This document shows positions 17,839 to 61,328 of a stretch of DNA of 64,000 nt, piece by piece; the first letter of the stretch is position 1; each line of letters begins with the position of its first letter. The stretch is from a virus. Lineage: Duplodnaviria > Heunggongvirae > Uroviricota > Caudoviricetes. Position numbers and translations under genes: made by a program. The stretch is taken from IMG/VR virus record IMGVR_UViG_3300026549_000070. One strand, 5' to 3'. The notes beneath the pieces were generated by a model. That model searched no databases and was not told the DNA's origin. It saw nothing but the letters and a program-made list of their open reading frames with translations.

Positions 17839-18351
17839 TTGGAAAGGAGACAAATAATGTACGCACCAAAGATATATGTTACCGTGGGAATCTCGGGAGC
17901 GGGTAAGAGTCATTTTGCAAAAAGATATTGTTCTGCTTTTAACGCGGTTGAACTTAATCTTGACAATTTCCGTAAAAAGATAAGCGGAGACATCTCAAAT
18001 CAGAATGTTACTTTCGAAGCAATTAAGCTTCGTGACAAAGAATTGATTGCCCACTTGGCAGGCGGTCACAATGTAATGATTTCTGATACAAACTTGCACG
18101 CAAAAGGCATTAACGATATTGCGAAAAAGTTTCCTTACAATGATGTTGAAGTTTTCTTTATTACCGACTCAGAAAATGTTCAGCTTTGTAAAGACCGCAT
18201 TGCTGATGATCTTGCAAATAAAGTTGACCGCAGTAATGTACCCGATGAAGTTATTGACCATCAGCACGAAAACTATATGAAGATGATGGACGCAACTTTT
18301 GCTGAAAACGTCCACATTCATTTTGTTGATACAAACGGCAAAGTATCTTAA
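17839..18351 (+). CDS. polynucleotide 5'-kinase-like P-loop kinase (T4 Pnk kinase-domain homolog; stand-alone)
   Basis: P-loop GISGAGKS. An exact ISDTNL motif and the NLDNFRKKI region parallel T4 Pnk (GCPGSGKS, ISDTNL, NRDDYRQSI). Confidence 0.55.
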   Translation: MERRQIMYAPKIYVTVGISGAGKSHFAKRYCSAFNAVELNLDNFRKKISGDISNQNVTFEAIKLRDKELIAHLAGGHNVMISDTNLHAKGINDIAKKFPYNDVEVFFITDSENVQLCKDRIADDLANKVDRSNVPDEVIDHQHENYMKMMDATFAENVHIHFVDTNGKVS

Positions 18352-21700: not shown

Positions 21701-22846
21701 TTCATTAAGGTTCAAATTGAAATGCTTTTGACTGGTGCTTCAAAACACGAAGACAAGTCATTAATGCAAATCGTACTTGTACCTTATAAGCGTGAAAAGT
21801 TTGCAGAAGAAGGCGGTGCTTTTGTTGTAAGAGTTATCGGTGATGATCTTCAGCCTCTTCCAGGACAGGAAGAATTGCTTTCTGCAATTTCTTCAATTCT
21901 TACAACACCAAAGTTTATTGTAAAGCCAATTTCTGATACAGATCTTGACTTTGCTCCAATCGACTTAAACGAATACATTGCTGAAGTTCTTCCTACATTA
22001 AATGTAAAAGACAGAAGCGAAAGAAAAGCTGCTTATGAAGCTGCTCAAGAGAAGTTGCAAACACTTTTAACATCACATTTCCCAGAAGGAAAGTATGGTG
22101 AATTTTATGAAGGTCTTGTTGTTACTTGCAACAATGGATTCACTTTCAAGATGACTTCTCCACAGTTTAAGGAATGGATGGCAAAACATAACGAAAGAAA
22201 GCCTGTAACATTAAGTCCTGATGATCCTTACGGATTGGTTATGAAAGATTACGGTGAAAAGAAAATACTTCTTAATCACATTGGCCCAGGCACTGAACTC
22301 GTTGGTTTATTGTTTGGACATTTTGCTCCGTTTACAGGACCTAAAGGTCACGGCAGAATGATCACTGCTTTTAGAGAAAAGGGTTGTAACAAGTTCTTAA
22401 TTGGTATCCCAAGAAGTGGAAAGTCTTTTGATGATGACAGAGAAATGTACACAACAGAGCAAAGAGCTGAAATATGTGATGCATATTTGAAGCAAGAAGG
22501 ACTTGAAGGCAAAGCAGTTATACTGAAAACAGGAATGCCCGCCATTACAGTCAAAGGACTTGTTTGGGAAGCATATAATATGTTTGGACCAAAGATTCGT
22601 CCTGTTTACATTGTGGGTCCTGACCGTGCTGATTTGTTCTCAAAGAACAAAGATTTTGATACTGACCCAACAACAACATTCCCAGAAAAGATGGTTCTTA
22701 CTGATAGAGGTGAAGGAGCAGTTTCAGGTACAAAAGTTCGTGAGTTGATACGAAAAGGTGATGTTGATGGAATTGCTGAAATGACGGGCTACTCCAAACA
22801 AATTGCACAAGAACTTGTTGACTTACGAGAAGACAATTTGATGTAA
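18728..22846 (+). CDS. 1372-aa multidomain enzyme. It carries an ATP-dependent (RNA or DNA) ligase-like nucleotidyltransferase domain and a C-terminal HxGH cytidylyltransferase-like nucleotidyltransferase domain. The N-terminal and middle domains are unassigned; the middle may be ART-like.
   Basis: Motif I SEKIDGSTTLFG with motif IV/V-like EGLVVTCNNGFTFK about 200 aa downstream. C-terminal LLFGHFAPFTGPKGHGRMI matches the GxFxPxHxGH signature of NMNAT, PPAT and TagD-type enzymes. Residues ~420-500 carry YVYSSSKD...CFEFEI, reminiscent of the STS and ExE motifs of ADP-ribosyltransferases; this last point is weak. Confidence 0.45.
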   Translation: MNETLFKAIREGGNMSIAGEDGTEVMATKLQVAKMTPEQFEEFKTSFFSFLMELSDMYNERFGTPIWKDESLITKGKIYSGSTRAFFQKPFEEFTKYKKSVGDFDIQLPESTMEHFPSFVEELTGKTVGDFTFYGSRTKSMQSHSLVTANPEKFAGIGAEYMQFDWEYTQWDDEAGKPAEWNDVSHYSSWEDIENNIKGAFVKILLKAAVAVKSQRTDKPFYSIKTGKPVKTPADAKEYSFHVDNGVTRLLKDVNDGYAKLDIGDRTSSHSMDFLFEVLFDRKPEADEKRNLVSFVRLIKFMNKEYDDALLRNIFTKFTKLLFDVHEQQISRDLTEDREVKHAAEMKFIELCPAVADMKDYAADAEEDYYTSEFRKEGNRYGQADKRAARLAAQQEGISFNGSHLKEEVAADGKTLYVYSSSKDQDLFKYYFGRNLKFGLNGGSAYGFATYAIMSDPFSGASDVGYSEAARDNLYGTNCFEFEIPTDKVFFFEYADYVKTLRGKNSTPANFVKQQVDFFKLPLSDEQIASLTPEEGAEFSSKAAQAFFRYMSRIYYQDKLGALITPCAGFVYKGRNDGRTYVGWDGYALIPRRFTNDFGKTWKEVDRNSPEYKEYVEKANGEREAADVFDGHKTPLKEAVYRLFMKFGSGDDTADKLVDGLFTDIVIHDDKTVDCTFKSNLPYIDQDRHYLRLTNDNHLIRSLHKLGFKFGKLNAGIKIGKESLELYKDDLIESIDPSIWPDSCTGGIKIAGGRIAKDTFQKIPTTIGEHYAYIVNCQIDDDVLKGYELHGNPDKPNWTTGEETKAKLVAAYGEFAENCILPEKPLPKAKRQLKNPDAIAKAEARAKEKAEKEKADWERVTKNWDDDVEKAMKFTEAMAGKSHLPHLFNSGSSTQMKQKQFDELLNYIQESGNVFDEEHFNVSEKIDGSTTLFGVDEKGVFVEKFGMKEIYRPVDLQREDLSRKVRAFLEIANNPELVDFLDDTRKEYNMQFIKVQIEMLLTGASKHEDKSLMQIVLVPYKREKFAEEGGAFVVRVIGDDLQPLPGQEELLSAISSILTTPKFIVKPISDTDLDFAPIDLNEYIAEVLPTLNVKDRSERKAAYEAAQEKLQTLLTSHFPEGKYGEFYEGLVVTCNNGFTFKMTSPQFKEWMAKHNERKPVTLSPDDPYGLVMKDYGEKKILLNHIGPGTELVGLLFGHFAPFTGPKGHGRMITAFREKGCNKFLIGIPRSGKSFDDDREMYTTEQRAEICDAYLKQEGLEGKAVILKTGMPAITVKGLVWEAYNMFGPKIRPVYIVGPDRADLFSKNKDFDTDPTTTFPEKMVLTDRGEGAVSGTKVRELIRKGDVDGIAEMTGYSKQIAQELVDLREDNLM

Positions 22847-22915: not shown

Positions 22916-23617
22916 ATGAGAAAGATAACGATTTTACCACAAACAACTAAAGATCCTTTACAGCTTATAGGGATAACATCCGCTGTATGTTATAATTCAG
23001 ACACTAGTGATAAAGAAAAGAACATAAAACGCGCATTAGATTGCATACACTCAGGACACGGCAGAGTATTAGAATGGCCGAATGTTGAAGTTATAGTTGA
23101 AGGATTTTCTGCAAAGATGATGAGAGAAGCTATGCGACATATTGTTGGTACAAGTGTTTTGCAAGCATCAACTCGTTACATTGATTATGAAAAAGGATTT
23201 GACGTTATCACCCCACCTGCTATTGCAAACAACAATGATGCAATGGAAGTTTGGTGTAAAGCTATAAGTGACATCAAAATGGCTATGGGTGCATTGAAAG
23301 CTTTGGGCGTTCCTAAAGAAGACTACACTAACTTACTTCCGCTCGCTTATCAGTCAAAAATGATTTGGAAAGTTAACTTAAGAGCTTTAACTCATTTTAT
23401 GAACACAAGAACCTGTTCTCGCGCCTATTGGGAAATCCGTGAGTTTTCGAATATGCTGAAGAAAGCTCTTATGGAATACTCACCTGAATGGGAAATCATT
23501 TGTAAAGAACTTTTCGTTCCTAAGTGTGATGCTGTAGGATACTGTACAGAAGCAAAATGCTGCGGAAGACACAAAACAAAGTCGGAGGTTATTGGTGAAG
23601 ATGTCAAACAAGATTGA
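22916..23617 (+). CDS. thyX: flavin-dependent thymidylate synthase ThyX-like protein (variant motif RHI instead of RHR)
   Basis: HGRVLEWPNVEVIVEGFSAKMMREAMRHIVGTSVLQASTRY aligns to the ThyX core HxSVLEH...RHRxxxxxxxSxRY. NLRALTHFMNTRTCSRAYWEIREF matches the ThyX C-terminal motif. Confidence 0.65.
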   Translation: MRKITILPQTTKDPLQLIGITSAVCYNSDTSDKEKNIKRALDCIHSGHGRVLEWPNVEVIVEGFSAKMMREAMRHIVGTSVLQASTRYIDYEKGFDVITPPAIANNNDAMEVWCKAISDIKMAMGALKALGVPKEDYTNLLPLAYQSKMIWKVNLRALTHFMNTRTCSRAYWEIREFSNMLKKALMEYSPEWEIICKELFVPKCDAVGYCTEAKCCGRHKTKSEVIGEDVKQD

Positions 23618-23987
23618 TGATAAAGATGAATGGGAAGAAGAAGACACCATTCTTGATGAATACCAAAGACAAAAAGAATTAGAAGAAGCTTCTGTTAATA
23701 AGTTTCTCACAAGAGAAGACTTTGCTGATATGATAGCACAACAGACTGGTTCTGGTGTTGGTGATCCTTTCCAAAGGATGGCTTACACAAATGACTACAT
23801 TGCAAAAGCATTGGAAAGAAGCCCTAATGGTTGGATGGTTACTTCTGTAAATCAAATGATGAACAATGACTTAAGCATTCACGGCTTTCAAATAGCACCG
23901 CCAGGCCCTGAAGCAGAAGTAAACATAAAAGTTTCAGATCCTCAACTTATAGCAACATTGCATCACGCAATGCAAGGATATTGTTAA
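23592..23987 (+). CDS. hypothetical acidic protein (131 aa)
   Basis: ORF overlapping the thyX end. Confidence 0.4.
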   Translation: MVKMSNKIDDKDEWEEEDTILDEYQRQKELEEASVNKFLTREDFADMIAQQTGSGVGDPFQRMAYTNDYIAKALERSPNGWMVTSVNQMMNNDLSIHGFQIAPPGPEAEVNIKVSDPQLIATLHHAMQGYC

Positions 23988-24709
23988 TGAATTATATTCA
24001 GCTTAATGACCATTCAAGATTTGATGATGAAGAATGGGAAGTTGCACACAAACTTGGTTTTCAGAATGTAACGCCTTTTTATAAAAAGCATCTTATACAA
24101 AGAAAGTTTAAGATTGACAAAGGCGACTTTATTATGGGTGAAATACCCGTAATGTTGAACGCAATGAAACAGCTCGGAATTGAGTATCATTATAATGACT
24201 ATCCTGAGAGTTTGCAAAAGTACTTACATCGTAAAGTATGGACTTCTACAATGAAAGAAGTTCGTAATCTTATGTATGACAGTAAAGATGGTACACTTGA
24301 TTGGTTCATTAAGCCGAAAGACAAATTGAAACGCTTCACAGGATTTGTTTGCTCAATAATTGATGATTTGCAATTTGTAAATGGCGCAGGAAATCAAACA
24401 AAGCTTTGGTGCAGCGAGCCTGTTATATTTGTAAGTGAGTATCGTTGTCCTGTAATAAATGGCAAAGTAATGGGAATGTATGCAGCTCCTGGGAAAGATG
24501 GGACACTTCCTGATATGAAAGTTGTTGAACAGATGGCGAAAGACTTCGTTGATGCGCCGTCTGCTTATGCACTAGATGTTGGCGTTTTGCATACAGGAGA
24601 GACTGCTTTAATTGAAGTCAATGACGGATTTTCATTAGGCAGATATGGAATCCCAGTTGACATATACACACAATTATTGCAAACAAGATGGAGTGAATTA
24701 TGTTCATAA
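23981..24709 (+). CDS. ATP-grasp family ligase
   Basis: FIKPKDKLKRFTGFV (ATP-binding Lys region), SEPVIFVSEYRCPVINGKV, and ALDVGVLHTGETALIEVNDG (ATP-grasp Mg/ATP loop). Confidence 0.5.
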   Translation: MLMNYIQLNDHSRFDDEEWEVAHKLGFQNVTPFYKKHLIQRKFKIDKGDFIMGEIPVMLNAMKQLGIEYHYNDYPESLQKYLHRKVWTSTMKEVRNLMYDSKDGTLDWFIKPKDKLKRFTGFVCSIIDDLQFVNGAGNQTKLWCSEPVIFVSEYRCPVINGKVMGMYAAPGKDGTLPDMKVVEQMAKDFVDAPSAYALDVGVLHTGETALIEVNDGFSLGRYGIPVDIYTQLLQTRWSELCS

Positions 24710-24894
24710 GCCTTATCAACAGACAAACACGAAAGCCCAATGATGTTAATGTTGACCACATCGTTTCAATTTGGTCAGCAGATGACACAACTGGAGTTTG
24801 GGAAGTTACCCGATGCCGTGATGTAAATGGCATTGAATATGAAATGCCTATCCTAAAAGATTTATTTTTACAAAGAGTTGGCATAAAAAATTGA
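24700..24894 (+). CDS. hypothetical small protein (64 aa)
   Basis: ATG overlaps the previous stop (ATGTTCATAA). Confidence 0.3.
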   Translation: MFISLINRQTRKPNDVNVDHIVSIWSADDTTGVWEVTRCRDVNGIEYEMPILKDLFLQRVGIKN

Positions 24895-24930
24895 ACTTTT
24901 TAATTGCTTCTTTTATATTATTATCGTAAC
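24891..24930 (+). promoter_or_regulatory. class I conserved promoter
   Basis: ttgaactttttaattgcttcttttatattattat, followed by the aaaggagcaatttatg RBS and start. Confidence 0.55.
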
Positions 24931-24953
24931 AAACCTGATAAAAGGAGCAATTT

Positions 24954-25292
24954 ATGGAATATACTTCTAGAGCCCAGCTTGTAACACAGATGAAGATCAA
25001 TCTTGAAACACACAAGGATGTTCGCGTACGGGCTTTACTCCGCATTTTTGAAAATCAGACATTTGACGAGCAGAGAACCGAGTCAACAAACCGCTACAAC
25101 GGAATCGGTTTTACAGGTTCTGATGCTCGTTTTCTTTCTTCTCTCGCAAAACAGTACAAATACAAAAAGTTTCTTACTGACAAGCAGGATGCAGTTCTTC
25201 GCAGAAAGATTGTAAAGTATGCTGCACAACTTATCAATGGTTCAATCAATGAAGGCAAAATCCGCTATGTTGACGGAAAATATATTTGGTAG
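24954..25292 (+). CDS. hypothetical early protein (112 aa)
   Basis: Class I cassette upstream. Confidence 0.5.
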   Translation: MEYTSRAQLVTQMKINLETHKDVRVRALLRIFENQTFDEQRTESTNRYNGIGFTGSDARFLSSLAKQYKYKKFLTDKQDAVLRRKIVKYAAQLINGSINEGKIRYVDGKYIW

Positions 25293-25302
25293 GAGTAACA
25301 TT

Positions 25303-25761
25303 ATGAAGAAGACTTGGAAATCATTGGAACATCTTTCAGAAACAGAACTGAAATCATATTATCTTCACGGAGCAAAAGCTCTTCCTTTTGGGGTTGTAAA
25401 TCGCAATTCACAGAATGGCTACACAATGGGAAGGGGAAAGAAAAATTCTCAGTATGCAACTGTTCTTCGTGACCTTGAAGCAAATGGACCTTCAAAGAAA
25501 ATTGAAACATTGGTTCGCGCTTTTGGAATCGATGAAGAAGACGCTGTTCGCCGACACAAGAATTGGATTGCAGCTTGTAAAGCTCGCCATCCTGATTGGA
25601 ACTGGGTTCACCTTGAAAACGGACATCCACTTCGCGGTCAGAACTGCTGCGTTTATTCTGCTCTTCATCAGGGCAAATTGATTTCCTACTCTGCAAAAAC
25701 TCGCAAGTGGGACTTGACAGAGTTGGGTCGCTGGTACATCCGTGAAGTTTTGAATAAGTAA
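25303..25761 (+). CDS. hypothetical protein (~152 aa; start adjusted to MKKTWKSL with RBS aggagtaacattatg)
   Basis: The track ORF 25219..25761 has no RBS at its first Met; the internal ATG has a strong SD. Confidence 0.45.
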   Translation: MKKTWKSLEHLSETELKSYYLHGAKALPFGVVNRNSQNGYTMGRGKKNSQYATVLRDLEANGPSKKIETLVRAFGIDEEDAVRRHKNWIAACKARHPDWNWVHLENGHPLRGQNCCVYSALHQGKLISYSAKTRKWDLTELGRWYIREVLNK

Positions 25762-26099
25762 TGGCTTTAATTACAATACACGAAGCAAAGAGACAGAAGC
25801 CAAGTAACATTGAAGTTTCTGCCTCAATGCAGGAACTACAGAAACATCTTCCTGACATCGTTAAAGCAGTTAACGAAGGTCAGTCTGCCTATGTCTTTAT
25901 TAACCACTTATCAATGGTTCACGAGCCACGCTTGCTCGATAACATTCGAGGAGTTAAAGACAAAAATGAAGTTTTGAGTAGGATATACAATTATGTCCTA
26001 TACGCTGAAGGAAATGGCGTTTTGAAAGAATACGAAAGTAGAGTTATTAGATATAAAGGCTCTGCAATTGGAGGAATGGAATGTCACAGCCCAAGATAG
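25761..26099 (+). CDS. hypothetical protein (112 aa)
   Basis: ATGG overlap start. Confidence 0.4.
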   Translation: MALITIHEAKRQKPSNIEVSASMQELQKHLPDIVKAVNEGQSAYVFINHLSMVHEPRLLDNIRGVKDKNEVLSRIYNYVLYAEGNGVLKEYESRVIRYKGSAIGGMECHSPR

Positions 26100-26269
26100 C
26101 TTGTGTTTATTGCAACAATTGGATTCCGCCTTTTATAACAAGTACAGGAAAACTCATTGATGCAACTTGTAAAATTGAGATGTGTTGTCCTCTTTATACA
26201 AATAGGAGTAAATATGAATCATACAACACACGCCAACAGCAGCAAATGGAGGAGTGTTAATATACAATT

Positions 26270-26488
26270 ATGTTGAATCCGAATGAAATCCCAAAAGCGT
26301 GGGAAAACTTTAAGCAGCTTGAAAGCGGCGTTGCAAAATATCCAACTCTTATTCGTTTCCGTCTTATGGACTTAGTTTACTTTGGAGCAGTTGATAACAA
26401 AGGCAAATATTGGATAAGACGGGCACCAATATCAATAAAAGATCTTACAGGCTGTTCAGCAGCAAAAATTAAGGAGTTGCAAAAATGA
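26270..26488 (+). CDS. hypothetical protein (72 aa)
   Basis: Plus-strand ORF with an AGGAG RBS 17 nt upstream of the ATG (ggaggagtgttaatatacaattatg). Confidence 0.35.
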   Translation: MLNPNEIPKAWENFKQLESGVAKYPTLIRFRLMDLVYFGAVDNKGKYWIRRAPISIKDLTGCSAAKIKELQK

Positions 26489-27183
26489 TTCAGAACTTGG
26501 TATTTTTCAGAAATCACAAAAGAGATAATAATGTATGTTGGGATAACTGTCACGAGTTTGATGACATAACGGATGTTGAAGTTTGGACTCATCACAACGA
26601 AAATGATGATGTTTATGACTTTACAGATGAAGCCGCAAGAGTTTCAAAATTGATTGACGACTTTCCTGAAGCAAACATTATTGGAAGAGTTGACAGTGAT
26701 AAAGGCTTTGGTACAAACATCATTACAATAAATCTTCGTCAGGCAAAAGCTTTCCTTGGAGTTACTGAATCATTGAAGCAGCTTTCAAAATGTACACGCC
26801 TTAAAGTTTGTTGCGTTATTGAAAAGAACGGACGAATCGTTTCCACAGGACTCAACGGCACTCCTTCAGGTTTCAAAAACTGTAGTGAAGTATTTACTCC
26901 TATGGACCGTCTTAAGAAAGATTACAGTACAAGACACCACGAGTTTTCAGAAGCTTATGAAGTTCACGCAGAAATGAATGCTGTTCTCGAACTTGGTAAG
27001 AACAGCTCAATGGACAACTATGATGACTTGACCTTGTACTGTTCAACTTGTCCTTGCCCAGGCTGCGCTAAAATGATTGCACAGGCTGGTATCAAATATG
27101 TGTTCTATCACAATGAATATGATCGTTTACCTGAAGGTGCAAAGCATCTTAAAGAGTTCGGCATTTATGTATTCAAATGTTAG
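26485..27183 (+). CDS. dCMP deaminase (cytidine/deoxycytidylate deaminase family)
   Basis: Zinc-binding motifs VHAEMNAV and TLYCSTCPCPGCAKMI (HAE...PCxxC). Confidence 0.75.
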   Translation: MIQNLVFFRNHKRDNNVCWDNCHEFDDITDVEVWTHHNENDDVYDFTDEAARVSKLIDDFPEANIIGRVDSDKGFGTNIITINLRQAKAFLGVTESLKQLSKCTRLKVCCVIEKNGRIVSTGLNGTPSGFKNCSEVFTPMDRLKKDYSTRHHEFSEAYEVHAEMNAVLELGKNSSMDNYDDLTLYCSTCPCPGCAKMIAQAGIKYVFYHNEYDRLPEGAKHLKEFGIYVFKC

Positions 27184-27194
27184 GAGTCAGCATA

Positions 27195-27386
27195 ATGGAA
27201 AACGAAGAAACAATGAGCGATGAAGAGTTTGATAATCTTTATGAAGACATTCTCAACAACGGACTCGTAAATGAAGAGTATAAGCAGAAGCTTATAAAGT
27301 TGATGGATGCCTACAGAAAGAATGTTGATGCTCTTTCTGATTATGCTGAAATTGATGTTACGCAGTGGGGAAATCTGATTTATTAG
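27195..27386 (+). CDS. hypothetical acidic small protein
   Basis: RBS taggagtcagcataatg. Confidence 0.4.
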   Translation: MENEETMSDEEFDNLYEDILNNGLVNEEYKQKLIKLMDAYRKNVDALSDYAEIDVTQWGNLIY

Positions 27387-27400
27387 GTGGGAGAGATAAT

Positions 27401-27622
27401 ATGATTGTTTTTACAGTAAATGAAGATCTTGCAAACGCAGCTTATCGTAAGGCACAGGAGTTTGCAAATACATATAAAGAGTGGAGATGGGGTCAGTGTA
27501 TCTTTAACGCATATTATGCATTCTTCCCAAATGAATGTAATGAGCTGCGTGGCACTGATGATGACTGCTTTTATCAAAATGATAGAGTAGAAAAGTTTCT
27601 TTCTCATTTCAATGTGGAGTAA
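27401..27622 (+). CDS. hypothetical small protein
   Basis: RBS ggtgggagagataatatg. Confidence 0.4.
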   Translation: MIVFTVNEDLANAAYRKAQEFANTYKEWRWGQCIFNAYYAFFPNECNELRGTDDDCFYQNDRVEKFLSHFNVE

Positions 27623-27625
27623 AAT

Positions 27626-28165
27626 ATGGCAATAAAGTATGTTTGTGACTTTTGCGGACAAGAAGCAAAAAATTTTCATAAAGAGTTCTCATCAGGTGAA
27701 ATAGTTTGCGATAATTGCTATGATCATCTTAAGAAGCAAACTTGGCGCCTTGCGGAAGAGCCTGCTGAACTTGAAAAAGCAAAAGAAAGTATTCGACAGG
27801 AATCACGACAGATTGAAAGTCAAAGAAAAGAACTTGCAAAAGAACAAGCAATGGACAGCAGAATGGCTGCTCGTTATCAGAACGGCTTTCACACAGTCAT
27901 TCGACTTTATAATCAAATGGTAAAAGCTTTAGATGATGCTGTACCTAAAGGCTTTTTATTCAGAAGAAATCCTTTTAGAATGATTTCTGAAACTGAGGTC
28001 TGTGACTTGGAACAGCGAGCTGTCGACGATGTTATACGAGAAGTTGAAAGAAACTTTCACGACAACTTTGACTATCTCTTTGAGAGAGACCCTTTACGCG
28101 ACAGAGAAGCTTTGCGTCTCAATGATATTCCAACAGTGAACTTACCTTGGGACAAAGATAACTAA
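27626..28165 (+). CDS. zinc-ribbon protein with a coiled-coil region (179 aa)
   Basis: CDFCGQ...CDNCYDH at the N-terminus. Confidence 0.4.
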   Translation: MAIKYVCDFCGQEAKNFHKEFSSGEIVCDNCYDHLKKQTWRLAEEPAELEKAKESIRQESRQIESQRKELAKEQAMDSRMAARYQNGFHTVIRLYNQMVKALDDAVPKGFLFRRNPFRMISETEVCDLEQRAVDDVIREVERNFHDNFDYLFERDPLRDREALRLNDIPTVNLPWDKDN

Positions 28166-28276
28166 ATATTGTTCATAAAACACAAGTAAGTGTTAATATT
28201 AAAATTGCAAGTAACTGCATAGCAGTTATAAATAAATTATAGATGCCAAGTTCAAGGCGTCAAATAGGAGAAACAA

Positions 28277-29785
28277 ATGAACGAAACACAATTCACTGCA
28301 TCGAACGACGATGACATCTTTAACTCTTGGGTTGCCTCTGAAGACGAAAGAAAAAAGAAGGAAGAGGAACGCAAGAAAAATTCCGGAAACTATCAGAAAC
28401 GCGAGTATGAAGCAATTAAGTATGTTGGCCTTTCAAAAGAGCATCCAACTATCGTACGCTTTGTAGGCAACTTTGTTGCAGAAGACCTTAAGGCTCATCG
28501 CCCAAATCCTTCTGATATGAAGTTTATGCACATCTCAAAAGTTAAGTCTGATGACGGAAAAACTGTTTTCTATCTCTACCTCCCACTTCGTGCTGATGAA
28601 CCTGAACAGGATCACTTGATGTGGAAAATCATTGACAAGGTTTATGCAAAGGAATGGGTAAAGGACCCTGCTACAGGAAAGAACAAACCTATTGAAACAT
28701 TCAAAATCAATCACCCAGATGTATACGAAAAGGTAAACAAAGGCGGCTATACAGAAGCTGACGGCAAATGGCCTTATATGTATGCACGCGGTTGGAAAGG
28801 TCCTGAAATGTTGCTCATCAATGTTATCGACCGCCGCGACGATTGGTGTAAAACAAATAAACACACAAAGTTGATTTCAAAGAATGTAAATGTTACACCT
28901 GATGGAAAGGAATATGCTGACTTCGGTGTACCTGCATTTGGATTCTTTGGTCCACTTACAAATCTTCGCAACAACTTCAAAATGGGTTGGGAGAAGTATG
29001 ATGTTGTAATCACAAAGACAGGTGAAAAGCTTGATACTGTAACAAATATGTTCAACGGTACAGCATTTACAAATCCTGCTGCAATCAAGGCAAATCTTGA
29101 CAAGTCAATGGGTATTGACCCTGCTGAGTACAAGTTCATTTCTCAGGAACCTGCTTTGACAGCAGAAGAGTTGAATTACGCTCGTTACGACCTTGACGAA
29201 AACTTCCGCGTAACATCTTATCATACTATTGATAAGTACCTTGGAAAGACAATTCAGTTGATTGATGCTGCTTGTAATGAAGACGCTTTGAAAGCAGGAA
29301 AGAAGGCAGACAGCCACTTCTATGAAGATCTTCAGGCACTTGTGAAAGAAGAGTCTGAACAGTGGGCAAAGGAAAAGGCTGCAAGAGAAGCCGCAGCTGC
29401 AAATGCTGCTCCAGCTGAAACTCCTGCACAGGAAACTGCTCCAGCTGCTGATGCTGCTCCTACAACACAGGCTGCTCCTTCATTCGACAATATTGCTCCA
29501 GTACAGGAAGCCGCTCCAGTAACAAGAACTGTTGCTCAGGAAGCACCTGCTTCAGGTTTGACTCCTGAAAAGCTTGCAGTTCTCAAAGGCTACAATGAAC
29601 TTTCAGCAGAACAGAAATCTTACATCAAAGATGTAATTCTCAACTCTGACGGTTCGCTTAACCACATTGAATGGACTGACACAGCTCCTTCACTTCTCGA
29701 TTGCCCAGTAGAACAGGGAGGATGTGGACAGCTGAGTCCCAACTCATTTGCGGTCTGTCCAGCTTGTTCAAAACATTTTCAGTAA
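28277..29785 (+). CDS. 502-aa protein with an Ala/Pro-rich low-complexity linker and a C-terminal zinc ribbon; possibly a DNA-binding protein such as an SSB, but unproven
   Basis: RBS aataggagaaacaaatg. Repeat-like linker AAPAETPAQETAPAADAAP. C-terminal CPVEQGGCGQ...CPACSKH. Confidence 0.4.
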   Translation: MNETQFTASNDDDIFNSWVASEDERKKKEEERKKNSGNYQKREYEAIKYVGLSKEHPTIVRFVGNFVAEDLKAHRPNPSDMKFMHISKVKSDDGKTVFYLYLPLRADEPEQDHLMWKIIDKVYAKEWVKDPATGKNKPIETFKINHPDVYEKVNKGGYTEADGKWPYMYARGWKGPEMLLINVIDRRDDWCKTNKHTKLISKNVNVTPDGKEYADFGVPAFGFFGPLTNLRNNFKMGWEKYDVVITKTGEKLDTVTNMFNGTAFTNPAAIKANLDKSMGIDPAEYKFISQEPALTAEELNYARYDLDENFRVTSYHTIDKYLGKTIQLIDAACNEDALKAGKKADSHFYEDLQALVKEESEQWAKEKAAREAAAANAAPAETPAQETAPAADAAPTTQAAPSFDNIAPVQEAAPVTRTVAQEAPASGLTPEKLAVLKGYNELSAEQKSYIKDVILNSDGSLNHIEWTDTAPSLLDCPVEQGGCGQLSPNSFAVCPACSKHFQ

Positions 29786-29823
29786 TAACTAATTCATATA
29801 GGATAAAACACAATGCCACTGTG

Positions 29824-29864
29824 GGCCAGCAATTTCCTAAGTTGCTGGCCTCCTATGTTTTTAT
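29824..29864 (+). terminator. probable rho-independent terminator
   Basis: ggccagcaa-tttcctaa-gttgctggcc followed by tcctatgttttta. Confidence 0.4.
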
Positions 29865-30040
29865 ACACCTGACAGAGAGTTTGCATTGACTTATGAATAC
29901 GACTGTTGTGACTGTCTTGTTATGGGCCTTTTTACAGCAGACGGAATAAAAATGTACGGAACATATGATAAATTAAAAAGTTGTATTGAATTTAATGTAT
30001 TTGCAGACGGCGACCTTTTAGAAGATTTTTGCATAAATAT

Positions 30041-30080
30041 TTGAACTTTCAAATATTTGCTTTTATATTATTACTGTAAA
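30041..30080 (+). promoter_or_regulatory. class I conserved promoter
   Basis: ttgaactttcaaatatttgcttttatattattactg, followed by aaggagcaaattatg. Confidence 0.55.
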
Positions 30081-30101
30081 TCAAACAACAAGGAGCAAAT
30101 T

Positions 30102-30437
30102 ATGGCAAAGGCCCAGTACACCGAAGAACAGTTTAAAGATTTTGGAGACTTCTACGCTTACACTGATGTTTTTGACTGGCATTATGTAAATATCCTTGAA
30201 TGGAAGAATGGAATTGCTCTTGTTGAACTTGAGAACGGTAAGGCAATTTTCAACGGACACAACAACAAAGCTTATTTCTTCGAGGAAGGTAAAGTTCCTG
30301 AAGATTGGATAAAAGATCAGTTTGACAAATGCGCAATCAAATACAGCTGCGCTTATACCGTTGCAAAGATGATTGAAGACAAAGCTTATAATGAGCTTCA
30401 GGAAATCTGGGAAGCAAAAAGAAGAGCTGACTACTAG
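30102..30437 (+). CDS. hypothetical early protein (start adjusted to MAKAQYTEEQ)
   Basis: The class I cassette RBS sits directly before the ATG at 30102. The track start at 30057 lies inside the promoter. Confidence 0.5.
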   Translation: MAKAQYTEEQFKDFGDFYAYTDVFDWHYVNILEWKNGIALVELENGKAIFNGHNNKAYFFEEGKVPEDWIKDQFDKCAIKYSCAYTVAKMIEDKAYNELQEIWEAKRRADY

Positions 30438-30449
30438 GAGGTAGGATAT

Positions 30450-30839
30450 ATGGAAGAAAGATTGCACATGCTGACTCAACAGTCAATCGATGCTATGAAT
30501 GAAAACGAGAATGACAAGAAGTACAAAGTTGCTTCAGTCGGCATTTCCAAACGGAAGGTAAGCTTCTGGGAACGCTGGACAGGATGGTACACATTCCTTG
30601 TTGCTGATCTTGTTGCAGATGTTGCATTTGAAATTGCAAAAGGACTGGGTGCTGTTGCAGGATTTATCGCAATGTTCGTAGCTGTTGCTGCTTTTGTTGC
30701 CGCAGGTCTTTGGTACTACAGATGGTTTGAAAAAATCTTGGAAAGAACTTATGTTGTTAATTTAATTGAAAAGGAGAAAGCTGATGTCAAAGAATCAGAA
30801 GGAAACGAAAAAGTTTCCGAAAGTGAAAGTAATTCTTAA
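30450..30839 (+). CDS. membrane protein (129 aa)
   Basis: RBS ggaggtaggatatatg; two TM helices. Confidence 0.45.
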   Translation: MEERLHMLTQQSIDAMNENENDKKYKVASVGISKRKVSFWERWTGWYTFLVADLVADVAFEIAKGLGAVAGFIAMFVAVAAFVAAGLWYYRWFEKILERTYVVNLIEKEKADVKESEGNEKVSESESNS

Positions 30840-31089
30840 TACAGTTCTTGCTTTGCTTTTCGGTTCTGCTGGCCCGCTTGCTGAAACTTTTGTTCAGAAC
30901 AATGCCCAGACGGCTGCAGTAATTGAAGGTTTGAAAAATGGCAGCAATGCAGTTGCAACTTATACTGCAAGCTTGCCACACATCGCTGCGGTTATCTTTG
31001 TGATTATCGCAATATGTTTTGCAATCAGAGCAGCAGATCTTGTAGTAAGATATATCAAGGACAAGATCGATGAAGACAAAGACAATTAA
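30784..31089 (+). CDS. membrane protein (~101 aa; start adjusted)
   Basis: RBS aaaggagaaagctgatg; hydrophobic helices. Confidence 0.4.
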   Translation: MSKNQKETKKFPKVKVILNTVLALLFGSAGPLAETFVQNNAQTAAVIEGLKNGSNAVATYTASLPHIAAVIFVIIAICFAIRAADLVVRYIKDKIDEDKDN

Positions 31090-31453
31090 GTTGCTTTTTG
31101 CAACATTACTTGTTGGACTTCTTGCTTCCTGCGAGCCTGCGAAAAGCTATTACCCGTGGGAAAATGAAAGTCCAATTGAGAAGCCCGCTCCTGTTACAGA
31201 ACAGGTTGTTCCTAAGCAGTTTTCAACAAATGCAAAACTGCTTGATACTAAGGCAGGTTATAACGGGTATTTATTTCTGTTGTACTATCCAGGGAATGAC
31301 AAAGCACCTGGTGAATGGAAAACAGAGAAATATGTTATAGTTGCTTTGTGGTTTGATGGAGATAAATCTTATCACGATGATTCGCAAACTTATACAGATT
31401 ACACTACAGCTAGAGACACCTTTGATAAAGGTCGTGTAAAGCCTAAAAACTAA
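31070..31453 (+). CDS. lipoprotein (127 aa)
   Basis: Lipobox LLASC. Confidence 0.45.
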   Translation: MKTKTIKLLFATLLVGLLASCEPAKSYYPWENESPIEKPAPVTEQVVPKQFSTNAKLLDTKAGYNGYLFLLYYPGNDKAPGEWKTEKYVIVALWFDGDKSYHDDSQTYTDYTTARDTFDKGRVKPKN

Positions 31454-31476
31454 AATAATTTTTTGGAGGTATATGA

Positions 31477-32478
31477 ATGAAAAAGTTGTCATTCATATTC
31501 GCATTGCTTGTTGCAATGACAGTATCTTTTACAGGTTGTGTTCGTCCTTACGACAAGCCTGAGTATGTGGAAGTTGGTCCTAATGAGACTGCCTTCGTAA
31601 TTCCGATGTTCACTGACAAAAATGTGAAAACAGAAGATCAGGTTCAGTTGAACGAAAATGTTGAGTTTTATCAGAACCACTTGGTTTCAAGCAAACTCAT
31701 TCAGATTCCGCACAAGTGGATTAAGACAGGCCGCTTTGCCCGCTCAGGTTATTACAAAGGTACAGTTCGTGTAATTACAGTCGACTTAACACCGCGCTCA
31801 GGAAACTGGCTACCGAATGAAAAGAATGCAATCAAAGTTGAAACAGCAGCTTCACAGGGTATTACAATTCCTATGTCATACACAGTACGAATTAAGCCTG
31901 AGGATGCAGCTCTATACTTAAGTTACTACAAAGCAGTTGACTTCCAGTCGGTAATTGATACGCAGATTAACCGTTACTTTGCACAGGAAGCAGGAAAGGC
32001 ATTTCATACAGTTGAATATAAAGATGTTGCTAAACAGCGTGATGTAATTTTAGAAGCTGCAGTTAAATCGACTAAAGAACACTTCAAGGCGCAAGGCATT
32101 ACTATTGACCAGTTGGCAATCGTTGATGGTTTAGTTTACGAAGATAAGTCTTTACAGACAAATATTGATGAACAGGCTAAGATTCAGGCACAGATTGTTC
32201 TTGAGGAACAGAAAGCAAGTCTTATATCTAAACAGAAAGCAAACAAGATTGCAGAAGCAAACATTGAAGCAGATGTTGCTCGTGCTAAAGCATCTACTCT
32301 TGACCTTGAATTAAAGCGTAAGCGTGGTGAGCAGGAAATTGAAAATACAAAAGTTATTGCACAGGCTCAGGCTGAAGCAATCAAGCAGGGTAAATACGCT
32401 CCTGTACCTGATACAGTTGTAGTTCAGGATTTGAAAGCACTCGGTTCGGTTCGAGATTTGATGCAGCCAAATAAATAA
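31477..32478 (+). CDS. SPFH/band-7-like lipoprotein with a C-terminal coiled coil (tentative)
   Basis: Signal with lipobox FTGC. GITIDQLAIVDGLVYEDKSLQTNIDEQ plus an AQ/AE-rich coiled coil resembles the HflK/C or stomatin C-terminus. Confidence 0.35.
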   Translation: MKKLSFIFALLVAMTVSFTGCVRPYDKPEYVEVGPNETAFVIPMFTDKNVKTEDQVQLNENVEFYQNHLVSSKLIQIPHKWIKTGRFARSGYYKGTVRVITVDLTPRSGNWLPNEKNAIKVETAASQGITIPMSYTVRIKPEDAALYLSYYKAVDFQSVIDTQINRYFAQEAGKAFHTVEYKDVAKQRDVILEAAVKSTKEHFKAQGITIDQLAIVDGLVYEDKSLQTNIDEQAKIQAQIVLEEQKASLISKQKANKIAEANIEADVARAKASTLDLELKRKRGEQEIENTKVIAQAQAEAIKQGKYAPVPDTVVVQDLKALGSVRDLMQPNK

Positions 32479-32492
32479 TAAATCTAAAAATT

Positions 32493-32530
32493 AAGGCCAG
32501 GTTACAAGCCTGGCCTTAAATGTTTTTGTT
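32493..32530 (+). terminator. rho-independent terminator
   Basis: aaggccagg-ttacaag-cctggcctt followed by aaatgtttttgtt. Confidence 0.6.
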
Positions 32531-32551
32531 AATATTTTATTGGAGGCTTAA

Positions 32552-33382
32552 ATGAGAAAATTTACAGTTGAAGAACCGATTGAGAAAAGTCGTAACAATG
32601 ATGATATCGTTGCAGGATCTTTTCTTTACCCACTTTACAACAAAATTATTAGAAAGGACTTTGTTACCACAGGCACTAATGCTTCACAAACTGCAGGACA
32701 GGAAGCTTATGTTGAGATACTTGCGAAGCAAGTTCAACTTGACCCTTATGCTCCTTACATTTATCTTGACAAAAACTTTCAAACACCAAAGAAGTATGTA
32801 AAATCTGAACTTGACTGGTATAAGTCAATGGACTTAAGTATCATTGGTCACGAAGGAATTGAAAGCAACCCTACTTGGCAGTCGTGTTGTACAAAAGACG
32901 AGAAGAAAGAAATCAACAGTAATTATGGTTGGTGTGTGTTCAGTGAAGAAAATGGCTCACAGTATGACAACTGTCTTGAAGTATTGAAAAAAGACAAGAC
33001 AACAAGAAACGCTATCATTGTGTATAACCGCCCAGAAATCTACAAAGATTACAAGCGCGATGGAATGCACGATATGATATGTACAATGCATTCCCACTTC
33101 TTTATCAGAAACAACAAACTTTATATGATTCACAATATGAGAAGTAACGACATTCGTTATGGCTTCATTTGTTCGGATCTCGCTTGGAATTGTTTCGTTT
33201 ATCAGAATATGTATGAAGACTTGAAATCAACATATCCTGACCTTGAAGTAGGAACAATTATTTGGACAAGTGACTCAATGCATCTTTACTCAAGACACTT
33301 TGATGATCTTAAAAACTTTTTTGAGTCTGAGCGAGAATTCAGAAACTCTATGATAAATCCTTCAGGAGGAGAATACTACTAA
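32552..33382 (+). CDS. ThyA-family pyrimidine C5-modifying enzyme, related to thymidylate synthase and dNMP hydroxymethylases; substrate uncertain, possibly dCMP-specific
   Basis: QYDNCLEVLKKDKTTRNAIIVYNRPEIY...MHDMICTMHSHFFI aligns to the ThyA DQL..VI..LK.NP.SRR.I..AWNP.DL...ALPPCH..CQFYV block; the catalytic Cys is retained. NMRSNDIRYGFICSDLAW aligns to QRSxDxxLGxPFNIASY, and an Asp may replace the Asn177 equivalent. Confidence 0.6.
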   Translation: MRKFTVEEPIEKSRNNDDIVAGSFLYPLYNKIIRKDFVTTGTNASQTAGQEAYVEILAKQVQLDPYAPYIYLDKNFQTPKKYVKSELDWYKSMDLSIIGHEGIESNPTWQSCCTKDEKKEINSNYGWCVFSEENGSQYDNCLEVLKKDKTTRNAIIVYNRPEIYKDYKRDGMHDMICTMHSHFFIRNNKLYMIHNMRSNDIRYGFICSDLAWNCFVYQNMYEDLKSTYPDLEVGTIIWTSDSMHLYSRHFDDLKNFFESEREFRNSMINPSGGEYY

Positions 33383-34131
33383 TGGAATTCATACCTTGCA
33401 AAAAGTGCAATAACGGCTGGCTTTATAAAATGACCGATGATGGTATGGTTGCTGTTGAATGCGAATGCCACAAAAAGTGGGATCACGAGAACACAGTTGA
33501 AAAAACTTACAAGCACAACGGCTTTGACATAAGACACTACAATTACAATCCTCGCACTTATGCGGGTACAAAGTCAGTTAAAGATAAAGACCGCATCATC
33601 AACTATGTTGAGCAGTTTGATAAAAATCCTGCGGTTCGTTCTTTAGTATGTTATCTTTACGGACCAAACGGAACTCAGAAAACAACAATGATGTCTTGGG
33701 TAGGACACCAGCTGCTTGATAAAGGCTATTCAGTTCGTTATATGCTGATGAATGACCTCGTAAAGTTGTTAATGGATGCTGAAGATTTCAATCAAGAAAA
33801 AGCAGAAAAAGCAAAAGCAATGGTTGAAAAGCTTGAAGAAACTGATTTGATTATCATTGATGAGGCTTTTGATAAAGAAAAGATGAAATTATATCGGTCA
33901 GGCTATCAACTTTCATACATCGACTCGTGGATTCGCAGAAGAGTTGGAGCATTGAATAAAGGCATCTTTTTTATAAGTAATGTTGAAATCAAAAACATTG
34001 AAGCAAACGGCTTGAGTCATTCAATTCAGGATTTCGTTGAAAGAGAAGTTATGTTGCATAATTGCTATCTTCAGTTCTTGGACAACTATATGCAGTCAAC
34101 AGTAAAAGAGTTTGATGGCAGCTTATTCTAA
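33382..34131 (+). CDS. DnaC/IstB-like AAA+ helicase loader with an N-terminal zinc finger
   Basis: CKKCNNGWLY...CECHKKW. Walker A GPNGTQKTT. Walker B DLIIIDEAF. Confidence 0.55.
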   Translation: MEFIPCKKCNNGWLYKMTDDGMVAVECECHKKWDHENTVEKTYKHNGFDIRHYNYNPRTYAGTKSVKDKDRIINYVEQFDKNPAVRSLVCYLYGPNGTQKTTMMSWVGHQLLDKGYSVRYMLMNDLVKLLMDAEDFNQEKAEKAKAMVEKLEETDLIIIDEAFDKEKMKLYRSGYQLSYIDSWIRRRVGALNKGIFFISNVEIKNIEANGLSHSIQDFVEREVMLHNCYLQFLDNYMQSTVKEFDGSLF

Positions 34132-34152: not shown

Positions 34153-35574
34153 ATGAACCGAACGATTGAAAATCTTGATGAGCAGAACCCAGTACTTATT
34201 GCTGAGTACCGTTTATTAAATGCTCTTTACTTAAATCCACAAAACTTCCTCGAGACTGGTGTTGAAAGAGATGTCTTTGTTCACGAAACTTGTAAAGATA
34301 CTTTTGATGCAATGCAGAAGTTGAATGCAGCAGGCATTCCACAATCAAAAAACGCAATCTTTCAGGATGCATCAGCCCGTAACATTAATGTTACACCAGA
34401 CTTTATTCAGGCATTTATAAATGTAAACACTGACCCAAATGTTGTTATCAAAGATGCAGTTGAGATGCTTCAGGATACTGCTTGTTCTTTGAAAGGACTT
34501 GATTATCTTGAGAAAGTTAAAAAGATTATCAATTCAAATCCTTTAAGAAGCGAAGCCGATAATGAAAAGATTCGTAATTTGCTTTATCAGGCAGAAAATG
34601 AATTGATGCCAATTACAAAGAAAGCAAGAATCAAAACTTTTGATGAAGTTGAACAGTCATATCTTGAAAACTTTGAAGCTCGTAAGAATGGTAAACAGTA
34701 TAAGTTTGGTGATCCTATTTTGGATAAAGCTGTTAAGTATGGACCTGCACCAGGAAGTGGCGGCTTGATTGCAGCAGCAACAGGTATGGGTAAGTCTGCA
34801 TTCTGTCTTAACTTAATCAACCGTTGTATCAATCAAAGAGTTCCTTTAATGTACTATTCATTGGAAATGGGCGAAACAGATACATTTGACCGTATGATGG
34901 CTTTAAGAAGCAACATCGATATGGAAGATCTTGTAAACCCTACTGACCAAGAAACTTGGCAAATGATTAAAGATCAGATTAAAGCACAGTTTGACATTTT
35001 GAAACAGAATCCCAACTTCCGCTTTTCTGAATGTGCTTCAATTTCTTTAACACAAGTTAAGCAGGATATTAAAAAGTTTCAGCAGGACATCGGACAGGAA
35101 TACTGCATTGTTGTATTTGACCTTCTTTCAATGGTTAAAGAGTTTATGATAACTGATGATAAAGGTATGAACTTTGCTCAAGGTATTGAAGTTGCAATCA
35201 ACATTCTTAATGCTATGGCAAAGGAACTTGGTTTTCATTACATTGCTGTTCTTCAGATGAATCGTAAGGGTGAAGGTGAAGGTCGTGCAGATGACCTTGA
35301 TGACTTGAAGAAGTTCCGTCCTGTAAGAAATCAAATCAAAAACTCAGGTGCATTCCTTGAACGCGTTCGTTGGGCAATTGGTTTGTTCCGCGCAAAGTAC
35401 TATGCTGAACTTTACATTGAAGATGAAGACCTTTGGAAAGATATGCCTGACTATTGTGAAGTATCTTTATTGAAGCAAAACCAGGGGACGATAGGCGCAG
35501 TGGGCAAGTATCTTTTTGACCCAAGCATAATGTCAATGGTTCCTGTGGAGGACTCAAATGAAGACGGAGAATGA
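34153..35574 (+). CDS. dnaB: DnaB-family replicative DNA helicase
   Basis: Walker A AATGMGKSAF, YYSLEMGETDTFDRMMAL (the SLEM motif), and the C-terminal RxxxxLxxxKxxRxxxKNSGAFLERVRWAIGLFRAKYY. Confidence 0.75.
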   Translation: MNRTIENLDEQNPVLIAEYRLLNALYLNPQNFLETGVERDVFVHETCKDTFDAMQKLNAAGIPQSKNAIFQDASARNINVTPDFIQAFINVNTDPNVVIKDAVEMLQDTACSLKGLDYLEKVKKIINSNPLRSEADNEKIRNLLYQAENELMPITKKARIKTFDEVEQSYLENFEARKNGKQYKFGDPILDKAVKYGPAPGSGGLIAAATGMGKSAFCLNLINRCINQRVPLMYYSLEMGETDTFDRMMALRSNIDMEDLVNPTDQETWQMIKDQIKAQFDILKQNPNFRFSECASISLTQVKQDIKKFQQDIGQEYCIVVFDLLSMVKEFMITDDKGMNFAQGIEVAINILNAMAKELGFHYIAVLQMNRKGEGEGRADDLDDLKKFRPVRNQIKNSGAFLERVRWAIGLFRAKYYAELYIEDEDLWKDMPDYCEVSLLKQNQGTIGAVGKYLFDPSIMSMVPVEDSNEDGE

Positions 35575-61312: not shown

Positions 61313-61328
61313 ATATACTAATTATTAT

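Follow-up and report, generated by a model that had tools for sequence, protein, structure and literature searches.

Bacteriophage T4 directs pyrimidine metabolism through a three-enzyme branch point at deoxycytidylate (dCMP), formed by the hydroxymethylase gp42, the deaminase Cd and the thymidylate synthase Td. T4 also encodes the dCTPase gp56, the deoxynucleoside monophosphate (dNMP) kinase gp1, and alpha- and beta-glucosyltransferases. We analysed a 64,000-nucleotide stretch of DNA from an uncultivated tailed phage (Caudoviricetes, IMG/VR record IMGVR_UViG_3300026549_000070), hereafter called the window. We consider it probable that this phage carries a T4-style dCMP branch point in which 5-hydroxymethylcytosine (5hmC) enters the DNA and deoxythymidylate (dTMP) is made by the flavin-dependent thymidylate synthase ThyX, whereas T4 uses the ThyA-type Td. 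The T4-like branch point itself is already known; what is predicted here is a 5hmC pathway in a new and abundant lineage of jumbo phages from gut and rumen. An earlier interpretation of the same letters, the sequence-only reading, had singled out four genes (a ThyX with an altered motif, an ATP-grasp ligase, a dCMP deaminase and a ThyA-family enzyme) and proposed that together they may make, and possibly decorate, a C5-modified pyrimidine. Each of the four lies on the + strand where that reading had placed it, with profile E-values far past chance. A modified cytosine, 5hmC, is the probable product of the hydroxymethylase-type enzyme, but the parts assigned to the ThyX change and to the ATP-grasp ligase did not hold.

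The ThyA-fold protein is encoded at 32552..33382 on the + strand and consists of 276 amino acids. It matched the Pfam family Thymidylat_synt (E 1e-12). Among PDB sequences searched with phmmer its best match was T4 deoxycytidylate hydroxymethylase (1b49, E 1.2e-39), compared to 7.8e-7 for the best ThyA, and it scored only 24–37 bits with the NCBIfam ThyA equivalogs, far below all of their cutoffs (108–405 bits). The protein was then aligned using MAFFT with six metagenomic relatives, E. coli ThyA, RB69 gp48, a T4-type gp42 and an Acinetobacter-phage gp42 whose gene adjoins glucosyltransferase genes. The catalytic cysteine occupies an invariant column (C177, equivalent to E. coli C146 and T4 C148). 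The residue that determines specificity, Asn177 in E. coli ThyA and Asp179 in T4 gp42, is D209 both in this alignment and in an independent HMMER alignment to the T4 hydroxymethylase structures. The Asn-to-Asp switch, which had been proposed from one plausible alignment, is therefore not alignment-dependent; Asn is not retained and the protein is not an ordinary ThyA. In addition, an acidic residue, D174, is found at E. coli L143 (T4 D145), E. coli D169 is kept as D200 within the motif RSND as in T4 (RSQN in RB69 gp48), and E. coli H147 is replaced by Thr (T178).

Overall, 15 of the 17 active-site columns compared were identical to T4-type gp42. These include E86, W109, Y125, R152, R197, S198, N199, H244 and Y246. 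Counterparts of Glu60, Asp145, Asp171 and Asp179 of T4 gp42 are all present, as are the catalytic Cys and the His and Tyr that bind the deoxyribose. The two exceptions are E. coli R21 (Thr39) and R127 (Asn153), the latter being the second phosphate-binding Arg. The window enzyme also differs from T4 gp42 by a one-residue insertion directly before the specificity Asp (ICSD versus R-ND). Identity was 36–38% to the T4-type and Acinetobacter-phage gp42 proteins and 18% to RB69 gp48. The gene is kept in all 120 of the closest cluster representatives, on contigs of up to 313 kb, and its motifs are nearly invariant among them (GMHDMICT in 118 and SDLAW in 120 of 120, with RSND within 118–120).

The residues at these positions have been described as diagnostic in the ThyA fold. 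N177D goes with dCMP as substrate, L143D/E with a hydroxymethyl rather than a methyl product, and D169N is found in flavin- and O2-dependent 5-hydroxy-dCMP synthases, every tested member of which has Asn there (PMC13326640). The gp42 family was recently shown to hold such 5-hydroxylases, long annotated as hydroxymethylases; RB69 gp48 and DLP3 gp80 share the ThyA fold, the Cys, N177D and the acidic residue at 143 with the window enzyme (Lee et al., NAR 2026, PMC13326640). This raises the question of whether the window enzyme makes some other C5 product, such as 5-hydroxy-dCMP, 5-methyl-dCMP as in XP12 or a new derivative, and both the insertion before the specificity Asp and the Asn at E. coli R127 could be taken as signs of such a change. 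We consider this outcome quite unlikely. RB69 gp48 and DLP3 gp80 carry D169N while the window enzyme keeps Asp200, the Asp at E. coli 143 goes with hydroxymethylation and not with methylation, and identity to the gp42 proteins exceeds that to RB69 gp48. A phmmer search detected no arabinosylation or other sugar genes in the window, and the likely anaerobic habitat in gut or rumen would also speak against an O2-dependent hydroxylase. Because the catalytic Cys, the Asp residues at E. coli 177 and 143, and Asp169 are all present, the protein reads as a true gp42-type enzyme, a predicted 5-hydroxymethyl-dCMP synthase, and the same residues argue against a 5-hydroxy-dCMP synthase.

A ThyA-fold hydroxymethylase and a dCMP deaminase are also features of the SPO1-type route, in which the hydroxymethylase acts on deoxyuridylate (dUMP) and which leads to 5-hydroxymethyluracil (5hmU) and to hypermodified thymidines. 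The specificity residue of the SPO1-type enzyme is Asn, while the Asp in the window enzyme points to dCMP. Thus, the 5hmU route that the sequence-only reading had also entertained is disfavoured, and its expectation of a dCMP-specific, hydroxymethylase-type enzyme is supported by the active-site columns and the match to the T4 enzyme. Pfam scans of the window did not detect 5-HMUDK, aGPT-Pplase or similar families.

The second enzyme of the predicted branch point is a dCMP deaminase of 232 amino acids (26485..27183, + strand) that matched PF00383 (E 9.5e-19) and the PHROGs family phrog_174, 'dCMP deaminase' (E 1.3e-47). The HAE and PCxxC motifs noticed earlier are both present in the translation, the latter as PCPGC. 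The deaminase domain covers approximately residues 88–232 and is preceded by an N-terminal extension of about 85 residues for which we have no explanation. Synteny between the deaminase and hydroxymethylase genes is kept in the relatives L003–L009 (59–80% identity in L004–L009), and in a distant phage locus (L013) the deaminase gene directly follows the hydroxymethylase gene. Moreover, in a metagenomic association study, MetaGPA, contigs on which cytosine modification had been demonstrated by experiment carried dCMP deaminase together with thymidylate synthase-domain proteins altered at residues 147 and 177 (PMC8670742). The conserved synteny, the direct adjacency in the distant locus and this co-occurrence support a link between the two genes, in keeping with a shared role at one branch point as known from T4.

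In the pathway that we propose, the gp42-type enzyme would add the methylene group of methylenetetrahydrofolate to C5 of dCMP by way of Cys177, and attack of water on the methylene intermediate would give 5-hydroxymethyl-dCMP. Kinases would then raise this product to the triphosphate for incorporation by the phage replisome encoded by neighbouring genes, such that 5hmC would replace some or all of the cytosine in the DNA. In the other branch, the deaminase would convert the remaining dCMP to dUMP, which ThyX would methylate to dTMP to supply a genome of 37% G+C. What the enzymes make, whether it enters the DNA, how much cytosine is replaced and whether decoration follows are predicted here by analogy with T4; family assignment, active-site residues, synteny and distribution were read directly.

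Two replication genes directly follow the hydroxymethylase gene on the + strand, a DnaC-like helicase loader (33382-34131, phrog_50, E 1.4e-19) and a DnaB-type helicase (34153-35574, DnaB_C, E 1e-24), and L003–L009 show the same order of hydroxymethylase, loader and helicase genes. Between the deaminase and hydroxymethylase genes lies a + strand gene (28277-29785) whose 502-aa product has a linker rich in Ala and Pro and, at its C-terminus, a four-Cys ribbon. The gene occupies this place in all of the relatives (58–98% identity); its product is without a family match and may be a replication or single-strand-binding factor.

The four-gene region forms part of a long block of + strand genes. 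Identical sequence occurs on a 159,946-bp ENA contig and also on JGI and Logan contigs. Contigs carrying close homologues of the ThyA-fold protein measured 285–313 kb, with IMG/VR contigs of 259–386 kb. As these homologues reside on contigs of 259–386 kb, the source is an uncultivated jumbo phage of animal or human gut and rumen metagenomes. A megablast search of 50,697 deposited phage records returned no nucleotide-level relative of the 10.5-kb region. The phage record MT835469.1 contains a ThyX gene whose product is 49% identical, with nothing further in common within 40 kb. The phage is unrelated to the Straboviridae, with no megablast match to them, DnaB/DnaC-type replication genes and a jumbo genome. 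One relative, L114 (GenBank JAZNWZ010000130.1, 306,108 bp), had been binned as part of a 'Candidatus Fimenecus sp.' metagenome-assembled genome. It shares with the window a 695-aa protein (51% identity), ThyX (57%) and a 112-aa open reading frame (ORF; 61%), and is probably a related jumbo-phage genome that was wrongly binned into a bacterial one.

The third enzyme, ThyX, is a 233-aa protein encoded at 22916..23617 on the + strand. It matched Pfam Thy1 (PF02511, E 6e-39) over profile positions 4–190 of 191 and passed the cutoff of the thyX equivalog TIGR02170 (104.4 bits versus 87.9). The canonical enzymes (T. maritima TM0449 and the M. tuberculosis and PBCV-1 proteins) have the signature RHRx7S. 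The corresponding segment of the window protein reads M-R74-H75-I76-V-G-T-S...Q-A-S85-T-R87-Y88, i.e. RHIx8S, with Ile in place of the second Arg and one additional residue before the motif Ser. The replacement of RHR by RHI that had been noticed earlier is therefore real. That reading had described RHR as the dUMP-phosphate-binding motif, which is correct only in part. According to the literature, RHR mainly binds the phosphates, ribityl and isoalloxazine of flavin adenine dinucleotide (FAD), while R78 and R80 additionally contact dUMP.

We searched 1.84 billion representative proteins for ThyX, aligned 116 full-length hits and compared 62 RHR-less sequences with 53 RHR-bearing relatives. Almost all of the approximately 50 clusters nearest to the window protein are without RHR and typically read Y-T-H-I-G-G-x-P-T-R-L-Q-x-S-T-R-Y. 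Among the 62 RHR-less representatives, the third motif position is Ile in 41 and the first Arg is replaced by Thr in 44. Using T. maritima numbering, this group keeps H53, E58, S88, R90, Y91, E144, R165 and R174, residues with reported roles in the stacking of flavin, in carbinolamine chemistry and in the activation of uracil (PMC8316439, PMC11940539). The window protein contains H48, S85, R87, Y88 and R165 at the positions of H53, S88, R90, Y91 and R174, which are 89–100% conserved in the subfamily, and it shares with the canonical enzymes a full-length Thy1 domain and equivalents of H53, E58, R78, H79, S88, R90, Y91, E144, R165 and R174. The changes characteristic of the RHR-less group are Q75 to Glu, R78 to Thr, R80 to Ile, R147 to Ala, Ser, Gly or Thr, Q180 to Tyr, and new Arg residues at positions 55 and 74. 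In the window protein R78 is kept, while E71, I76 and T138 stand at the positions of Q75, R80 and R147; Tyr at 180 and Arg at 55 and 74 further distinguish it from the canonical enzymes. Position 147 is Arg in 51 of the 53 canonical representatives, whereas Ala, Arg, Ser or Gly is found in the variant subfamily.

The RHR-less ThyX is not confined to phages. It occurs 325 times in one-per-species bacterial genomes, mostly those of Lachnospiraceae, and has about 465 occurrences in the viral metagenome contigs of IMG/VR. We read 80 loci from each set. The bacterial protein had T-H-I at 78 of its 80 loci, and cultured carriers include Lachnospira multipara ATCC 19207, L. pectinoschiza M83, Lachnospiraceae bacterium XPB1003 and Stecheria intestinalis. 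In XPB1003 (L172) the gene is located between MgtE and DHFR, directly upstream of DHFR, and in L. multipara (L178) between a PTS/GH1 operon and HAD/ClpB genes. Its neighbours in these viral loci, which belong to gut phages, are genes of dNTP supply and replication such as NrdD/NrdG anaerobic ribonucleotide reductase, NT5C nucleotidase, a dNK-like kinase, NAD-ligase, Pol III alpha and RecD2. The RHR-less protein thus appears to serve Lachnospiraceae as their chromosomal ThyX, in a housekeeping context. As the equivalog cutoff is passed, the catalytic residues are kept and the subfamily is chromosomal in bacteria, the window protein is most likely a working dTMP synthase of a little-studied subfamily, as judged from its sequence, and is not evidence of new base chemistry. 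The suggestion that RHI marks an altered substrate was not borne out, since the trait is subfamily-wide. The possibility that Q75E acts as a dCMP switch akin to N177D of ThyA was likewise rejected, as R174 is kept and the subfamily is chromosomal in bacteria.

We also noticed four Cys residues in the window ThyX (C167, C204, C210 and C216), arranged as R-x-C-x-R-A followed by a C-terminal C-x5-C-x5-C. The motif is present in nearly all of the aligned sequences, RHR-less as well as nearest RHR-bearing, whereas the T. maritima enzyme is without it. As the nearest RHR-bearing relatives share the motif, it was rejected as a mark of the RHR-less subfamily. The four Cys may form a metal or Fe-S site in the ThyX of strict anaerobes, and there is a small chance that the RHR-less, four-Cys subfamily works by a mechanism of its own, as a thymidylate synthase that uses flavin, or flavin together with metal, and is adapted to such organisms. 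Literature searches for Fe-S or Cys-rich ThyX proteins and for the effects of mutations in RHR yielded nothing of use among the papers available.

The ATP-grasp ligase is indeed located two genes downstream of ThyX, with one small ORF intervening. It is a 242-aa protein (23981..24709, + strand) of the R2K clade that strongly matched both Pfam models, PF18299 R2K_2 (E 3e-35, 121.6 bits versus a gathering cutoff of 26.2) and R2K_3 (E 1e-27, 97.7 bits versus 26.3), and belongs to phrog_7313, a family without an assigned function. It had no match among PDB sequences, and nothing sets it apart from the R2K.2/R2K.3 enzymes described by Burroughs, Zhang & Aravind in 2015 (PMC4431377). Those enzymes are predicted to be protein-directed peptide ligases in phage-host conflict, with no substrate demonstrated (PMC4431377), and they occur sporadically in jumbo phages (PMC4431377, PMC7824862), including Noxifer, AH06, FLC9, S-CRM01 and Bacillus phage G. 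The intervening ORF (23592..23987, + strand; 131 aa by the longest start, 128 aa as called in public contigs) had no Pfam, PHROGs or NCBIfam match and is kept, along with the ATP-grasp gene, only in the closest relative.

ThyX, the small ORF and the ATP-grasp gene are adjacent and co-directional, the ThyX subfamily is remodelled (Q75E, R80I, R147 to Ala, Ser, Gly or Thr, and new Arg residues at 55 and 74), and no substrate of an R2K enzyme has been demonstrated (PMC4431377). One could therefore envisage a new hypermodification pathway in which ThyX takes another substrate or yields another product and the ligase decorates the modified pyrimidine. We regard this as very improbable. Of the 80 viral ThyX loci, that of the closest relative (L021/L103, on the contig of L003) alone had the ATP-grasp gene next to ThyX, and 79 lacked any gene for an ATP-grasp, deaminase or ThyA-like protein within 8 kb; the adjacency is peculiar to the sub-lineage of the window. 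In the sister lineages L022, L024 and L114 a different gene lies between ThyX and the conserved 112-aa ORF (24954-25292 in the window). In L022 (8677-9153) it encodes a 158-aa TARG1/OARD1-type macrodomain protein (PDB 4j5q, E 8e-8), and a similar 150-aa ORF is present in L024 (1958-2410) and L114 (7631-8083). Conversely, none of seven R2K loci elsewhere (Pseudomonas phage Noxifer, Erwinia phage AH06 and five more viral sequences) had a gene for ThyX, a ThyA-like protein or a deaminase within 8 kb. The retained uracil-activating R174 and the chromosomal location of the same ThyX subfamily in Lachnospiraceae, in housekeeping contexts and beside DHFR, also speak against a changed chemistry. Because the ligase is missing at 79 of the 80 loci, is exchanged for a macrodomain protein in sister phages and has homologues without linked pyrimidine enzymes, we conclude that it is probably not part of the pyrimidine pathway and that there is no conserved linkage between ligase and base modifier. 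Decoration by the ligase, as had been proposed, therefore finds no support. The segment 23592-24894 looks like a variable accessory slot, and its contents suggest a variable counter-defence slot next to ThyX.

Several observations weigh against the predicted 5hmC pathway. Our view covers the window and the 10 kb past its 3' end (L018); these roughly 74 kb belong to a genome whose size probably exceeds 250 kb. Within this sequence, Pfam or PHROGs scans of about 60 ORFs, many without a family match, revealed no dCTPase, no clear gp1-like dNMP kinase and no DNA glycosyltransferase. Searches using phmmer with T4-type gp56, beta-glucosyltransferase, Acinetobacter-phage glycosyltransferases and the proteins of the RB69 arabinosylation cluster gave nothing at E<=1. 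The lack of a glycosyltransferase and a dCTPase in the window had been remarked upon before and is upheld by these scans. Thus, the 74 kb hold no complete T4-type hydroxymethylcytosine system with dC exclusion and glucosylation, and no homologue of gp56, gp1 or the T4 glucosyltransferases. The only candidates for a kinase and a dCTPase are weak and lie outside the window, namely a 188-aa P-loop kinase (AAA_28) and a NUDIX protein. With respect to ThyX, the subfamily has lost R80 and R147, and most members R78 as well, which are reported contacts of dUMP and FAD, and to our knowledge no RHR-less ThyX has been assayed. Finally, the near-loss of several cytosine-containing sites is unexpected under complete replacement of cytosine.

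The candidates outside the window are located just past its 3' end (L018, 15521-19332), where we observed the AAA_28 kinase, a CCA-adding enzyme (PolyA_pol and HD domains), the NUDIX hydrolase and a GNAT protein; an SLT protein is also encoded in this extension, and nothing there is clearly pyrimidine-specific. The kinase matched a PHROGs family named 'thymidylate kinase' (E 2e-14) and resembled neither the RB69 protein of that name nor any PDB sequence. These genes could be a NAD or nucleotide module, or could be the source of the lacking dNMP kinase and dCTPase. Ten larger unannotated ORFs at 40–60 kb had no PHROGs match, and a P-loop kinase encoded at 17839-18351 was rejected as a dNMP kinase, being of the polynucleotide-kinase type.

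Site avoidance was pronounced. The window contains 9 CATG sites (14912, 16321, 17005, 17035, 17619, 30467, 43826, 44236 and 60584) where approximately 243–271 are expected, an observed-to-expected ratio (O/E) of 0.03–0.04. CCGG (O/E 0.19), ACGT (0.21) and GATC (0.55) are also depleted, and the same pattern was found in L003, L004, L005 and L018. In the T4-like controls PP01 and RB69, CATG, ACGT and CCGG were not depleted (O/E 0.81–1.19) whereas GATC was. Fully 5hmC-substituted T4gt DNA resists 81.9% of 227 type II enzymes (PMC7653180), and in vitro these include NlaIII, FatI, HpaII, MspI, HpyCH4IV and MboI (PMC7653180, supplementary table). As 5hmC DNA resists the enzymes tested for these sites, their avoidance would not be expected under full replacement. 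Possible causes are partial replacement, modification-dependent nucleases or layered strategies as in the GATC-depleted T4-like controls. Site avoidance lowers our confidence in fully modified virion DNA and leaves the enzyme assignment unaffected. Restriction evasion, the purpose suggested by the sequence-only reading, would fit poorly with such extreme avoidance of cytosine-containing 4-bp palindromes.

These results bear on the alternative that the hydroxymethylase acts on the nucleotide pool only, or that replacement is partial, such that virion DNA would be largely canonical, or would contain some 5hmU by way of hydroxymethyl-dCMP deamination, with site avoidance as the main defence. Extreme avoidance of CATG, CCGG and ACGT across the lineage, despite the resistance of 5hmC DNA, is what such a phage might show, and no dCTPase was found that would exclude dCTP. 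The deaminase could in principle accept 5-substituted dCMP, an activity that is established for T4 Cd. Nevertheless, we judge this alternative unlikely. Every characterised phage with a gp42-type enzyme has the corresponding base in its DNA, the T-even phages being the paradigm, and MetaGPA ties such enzymes to contigs whose cytosine modification was demonstrated by experiment (PMC8670742). The T4-like controls deplete GATC despite their modified cytosine, indicating that avoidance and modification can coexist, and a dCTPase may lie in the remainder of the genome, most of which is outside the examined sequence.

There is also a small chance that 5hmC is made and then derivatised, or that the DNA is otherwise handled, by enzymes unlike the known DNA glycosyl-, carbamoyl- or amino-acid transferases. 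The R2K ATP-grasp protein could be one such derivatising enzyme in this sub-lineage. Under this alternative, the loss of CATG, CCGG and ACGT would reflect pressure from modification-dependent nucleases with palindromic specificity.

If the predicted branch point operates as proposed, 5hmC-type DNA would be present in abundant uncultivated jumbo phages of the anaerobic gut and rumen, far from the T-even phages, and these phages would be a possible source of new enzymes that handle hydroxymethylcytosine. Where DNA is modified, library preparation, methylation calling by bisulfite or enzymes, and nanopore basecalling become biased, and predictions of host range and of sensitivity to host defences are affected as well. 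The RHR-less ThyX is a normal, widespread subfamily that annotators should not take as a sign of new chemistry. It seems, as far as we know, to be biochemically uncharacterised, and with R80 and R147 lost and four invariant Cys residues it is a reasonable target for biochemistry.

Several other features of the window were observed. Upstream of ThyX, a + strand gene (18728-22846) encodes a 1372-aa protein whose N-terminus corresponds to phrog_19290; the protein had no Pfam or NCBIfam match, and its C-terminal third had no match among PDB sequences. By eye, it contains a KIDG ligase-type motif and, toward the C-terminus, GHFAPFTGPKGHG followed by ISGTKVR, resembling an HxGH nucleotidyltransferase. 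It is preceded by the polynucleotide-kinase-like protein (17839-18351), and an Rnl1-type RNA ligase is encoded further on (54298-55533). Nine tRNA genes (Ser, three Glu, Gln, Asn, Thr, Tyr and Met) lie between 44009 and 62959. Together, the 1372-aa protein, the kinase, the Rnl1-type ligase and the tRNA cluster suggest an RNA-repair module. Two ORFs among the tRNA genes, 61308-61988 (zf-C2H2 and DUF559) and 63100-63909 (NUMOD3), are probable homing endonucleases. Near the beginning of the window, a 1859-aa ORFan (859-6438, + strand), probably a virion protein, lies near a gene for a BspA-type leucine-rich-repeat protein (7728-8483, + strand; LRR_5, E 3e-55), which is consistent with a gut-anaerobe host.

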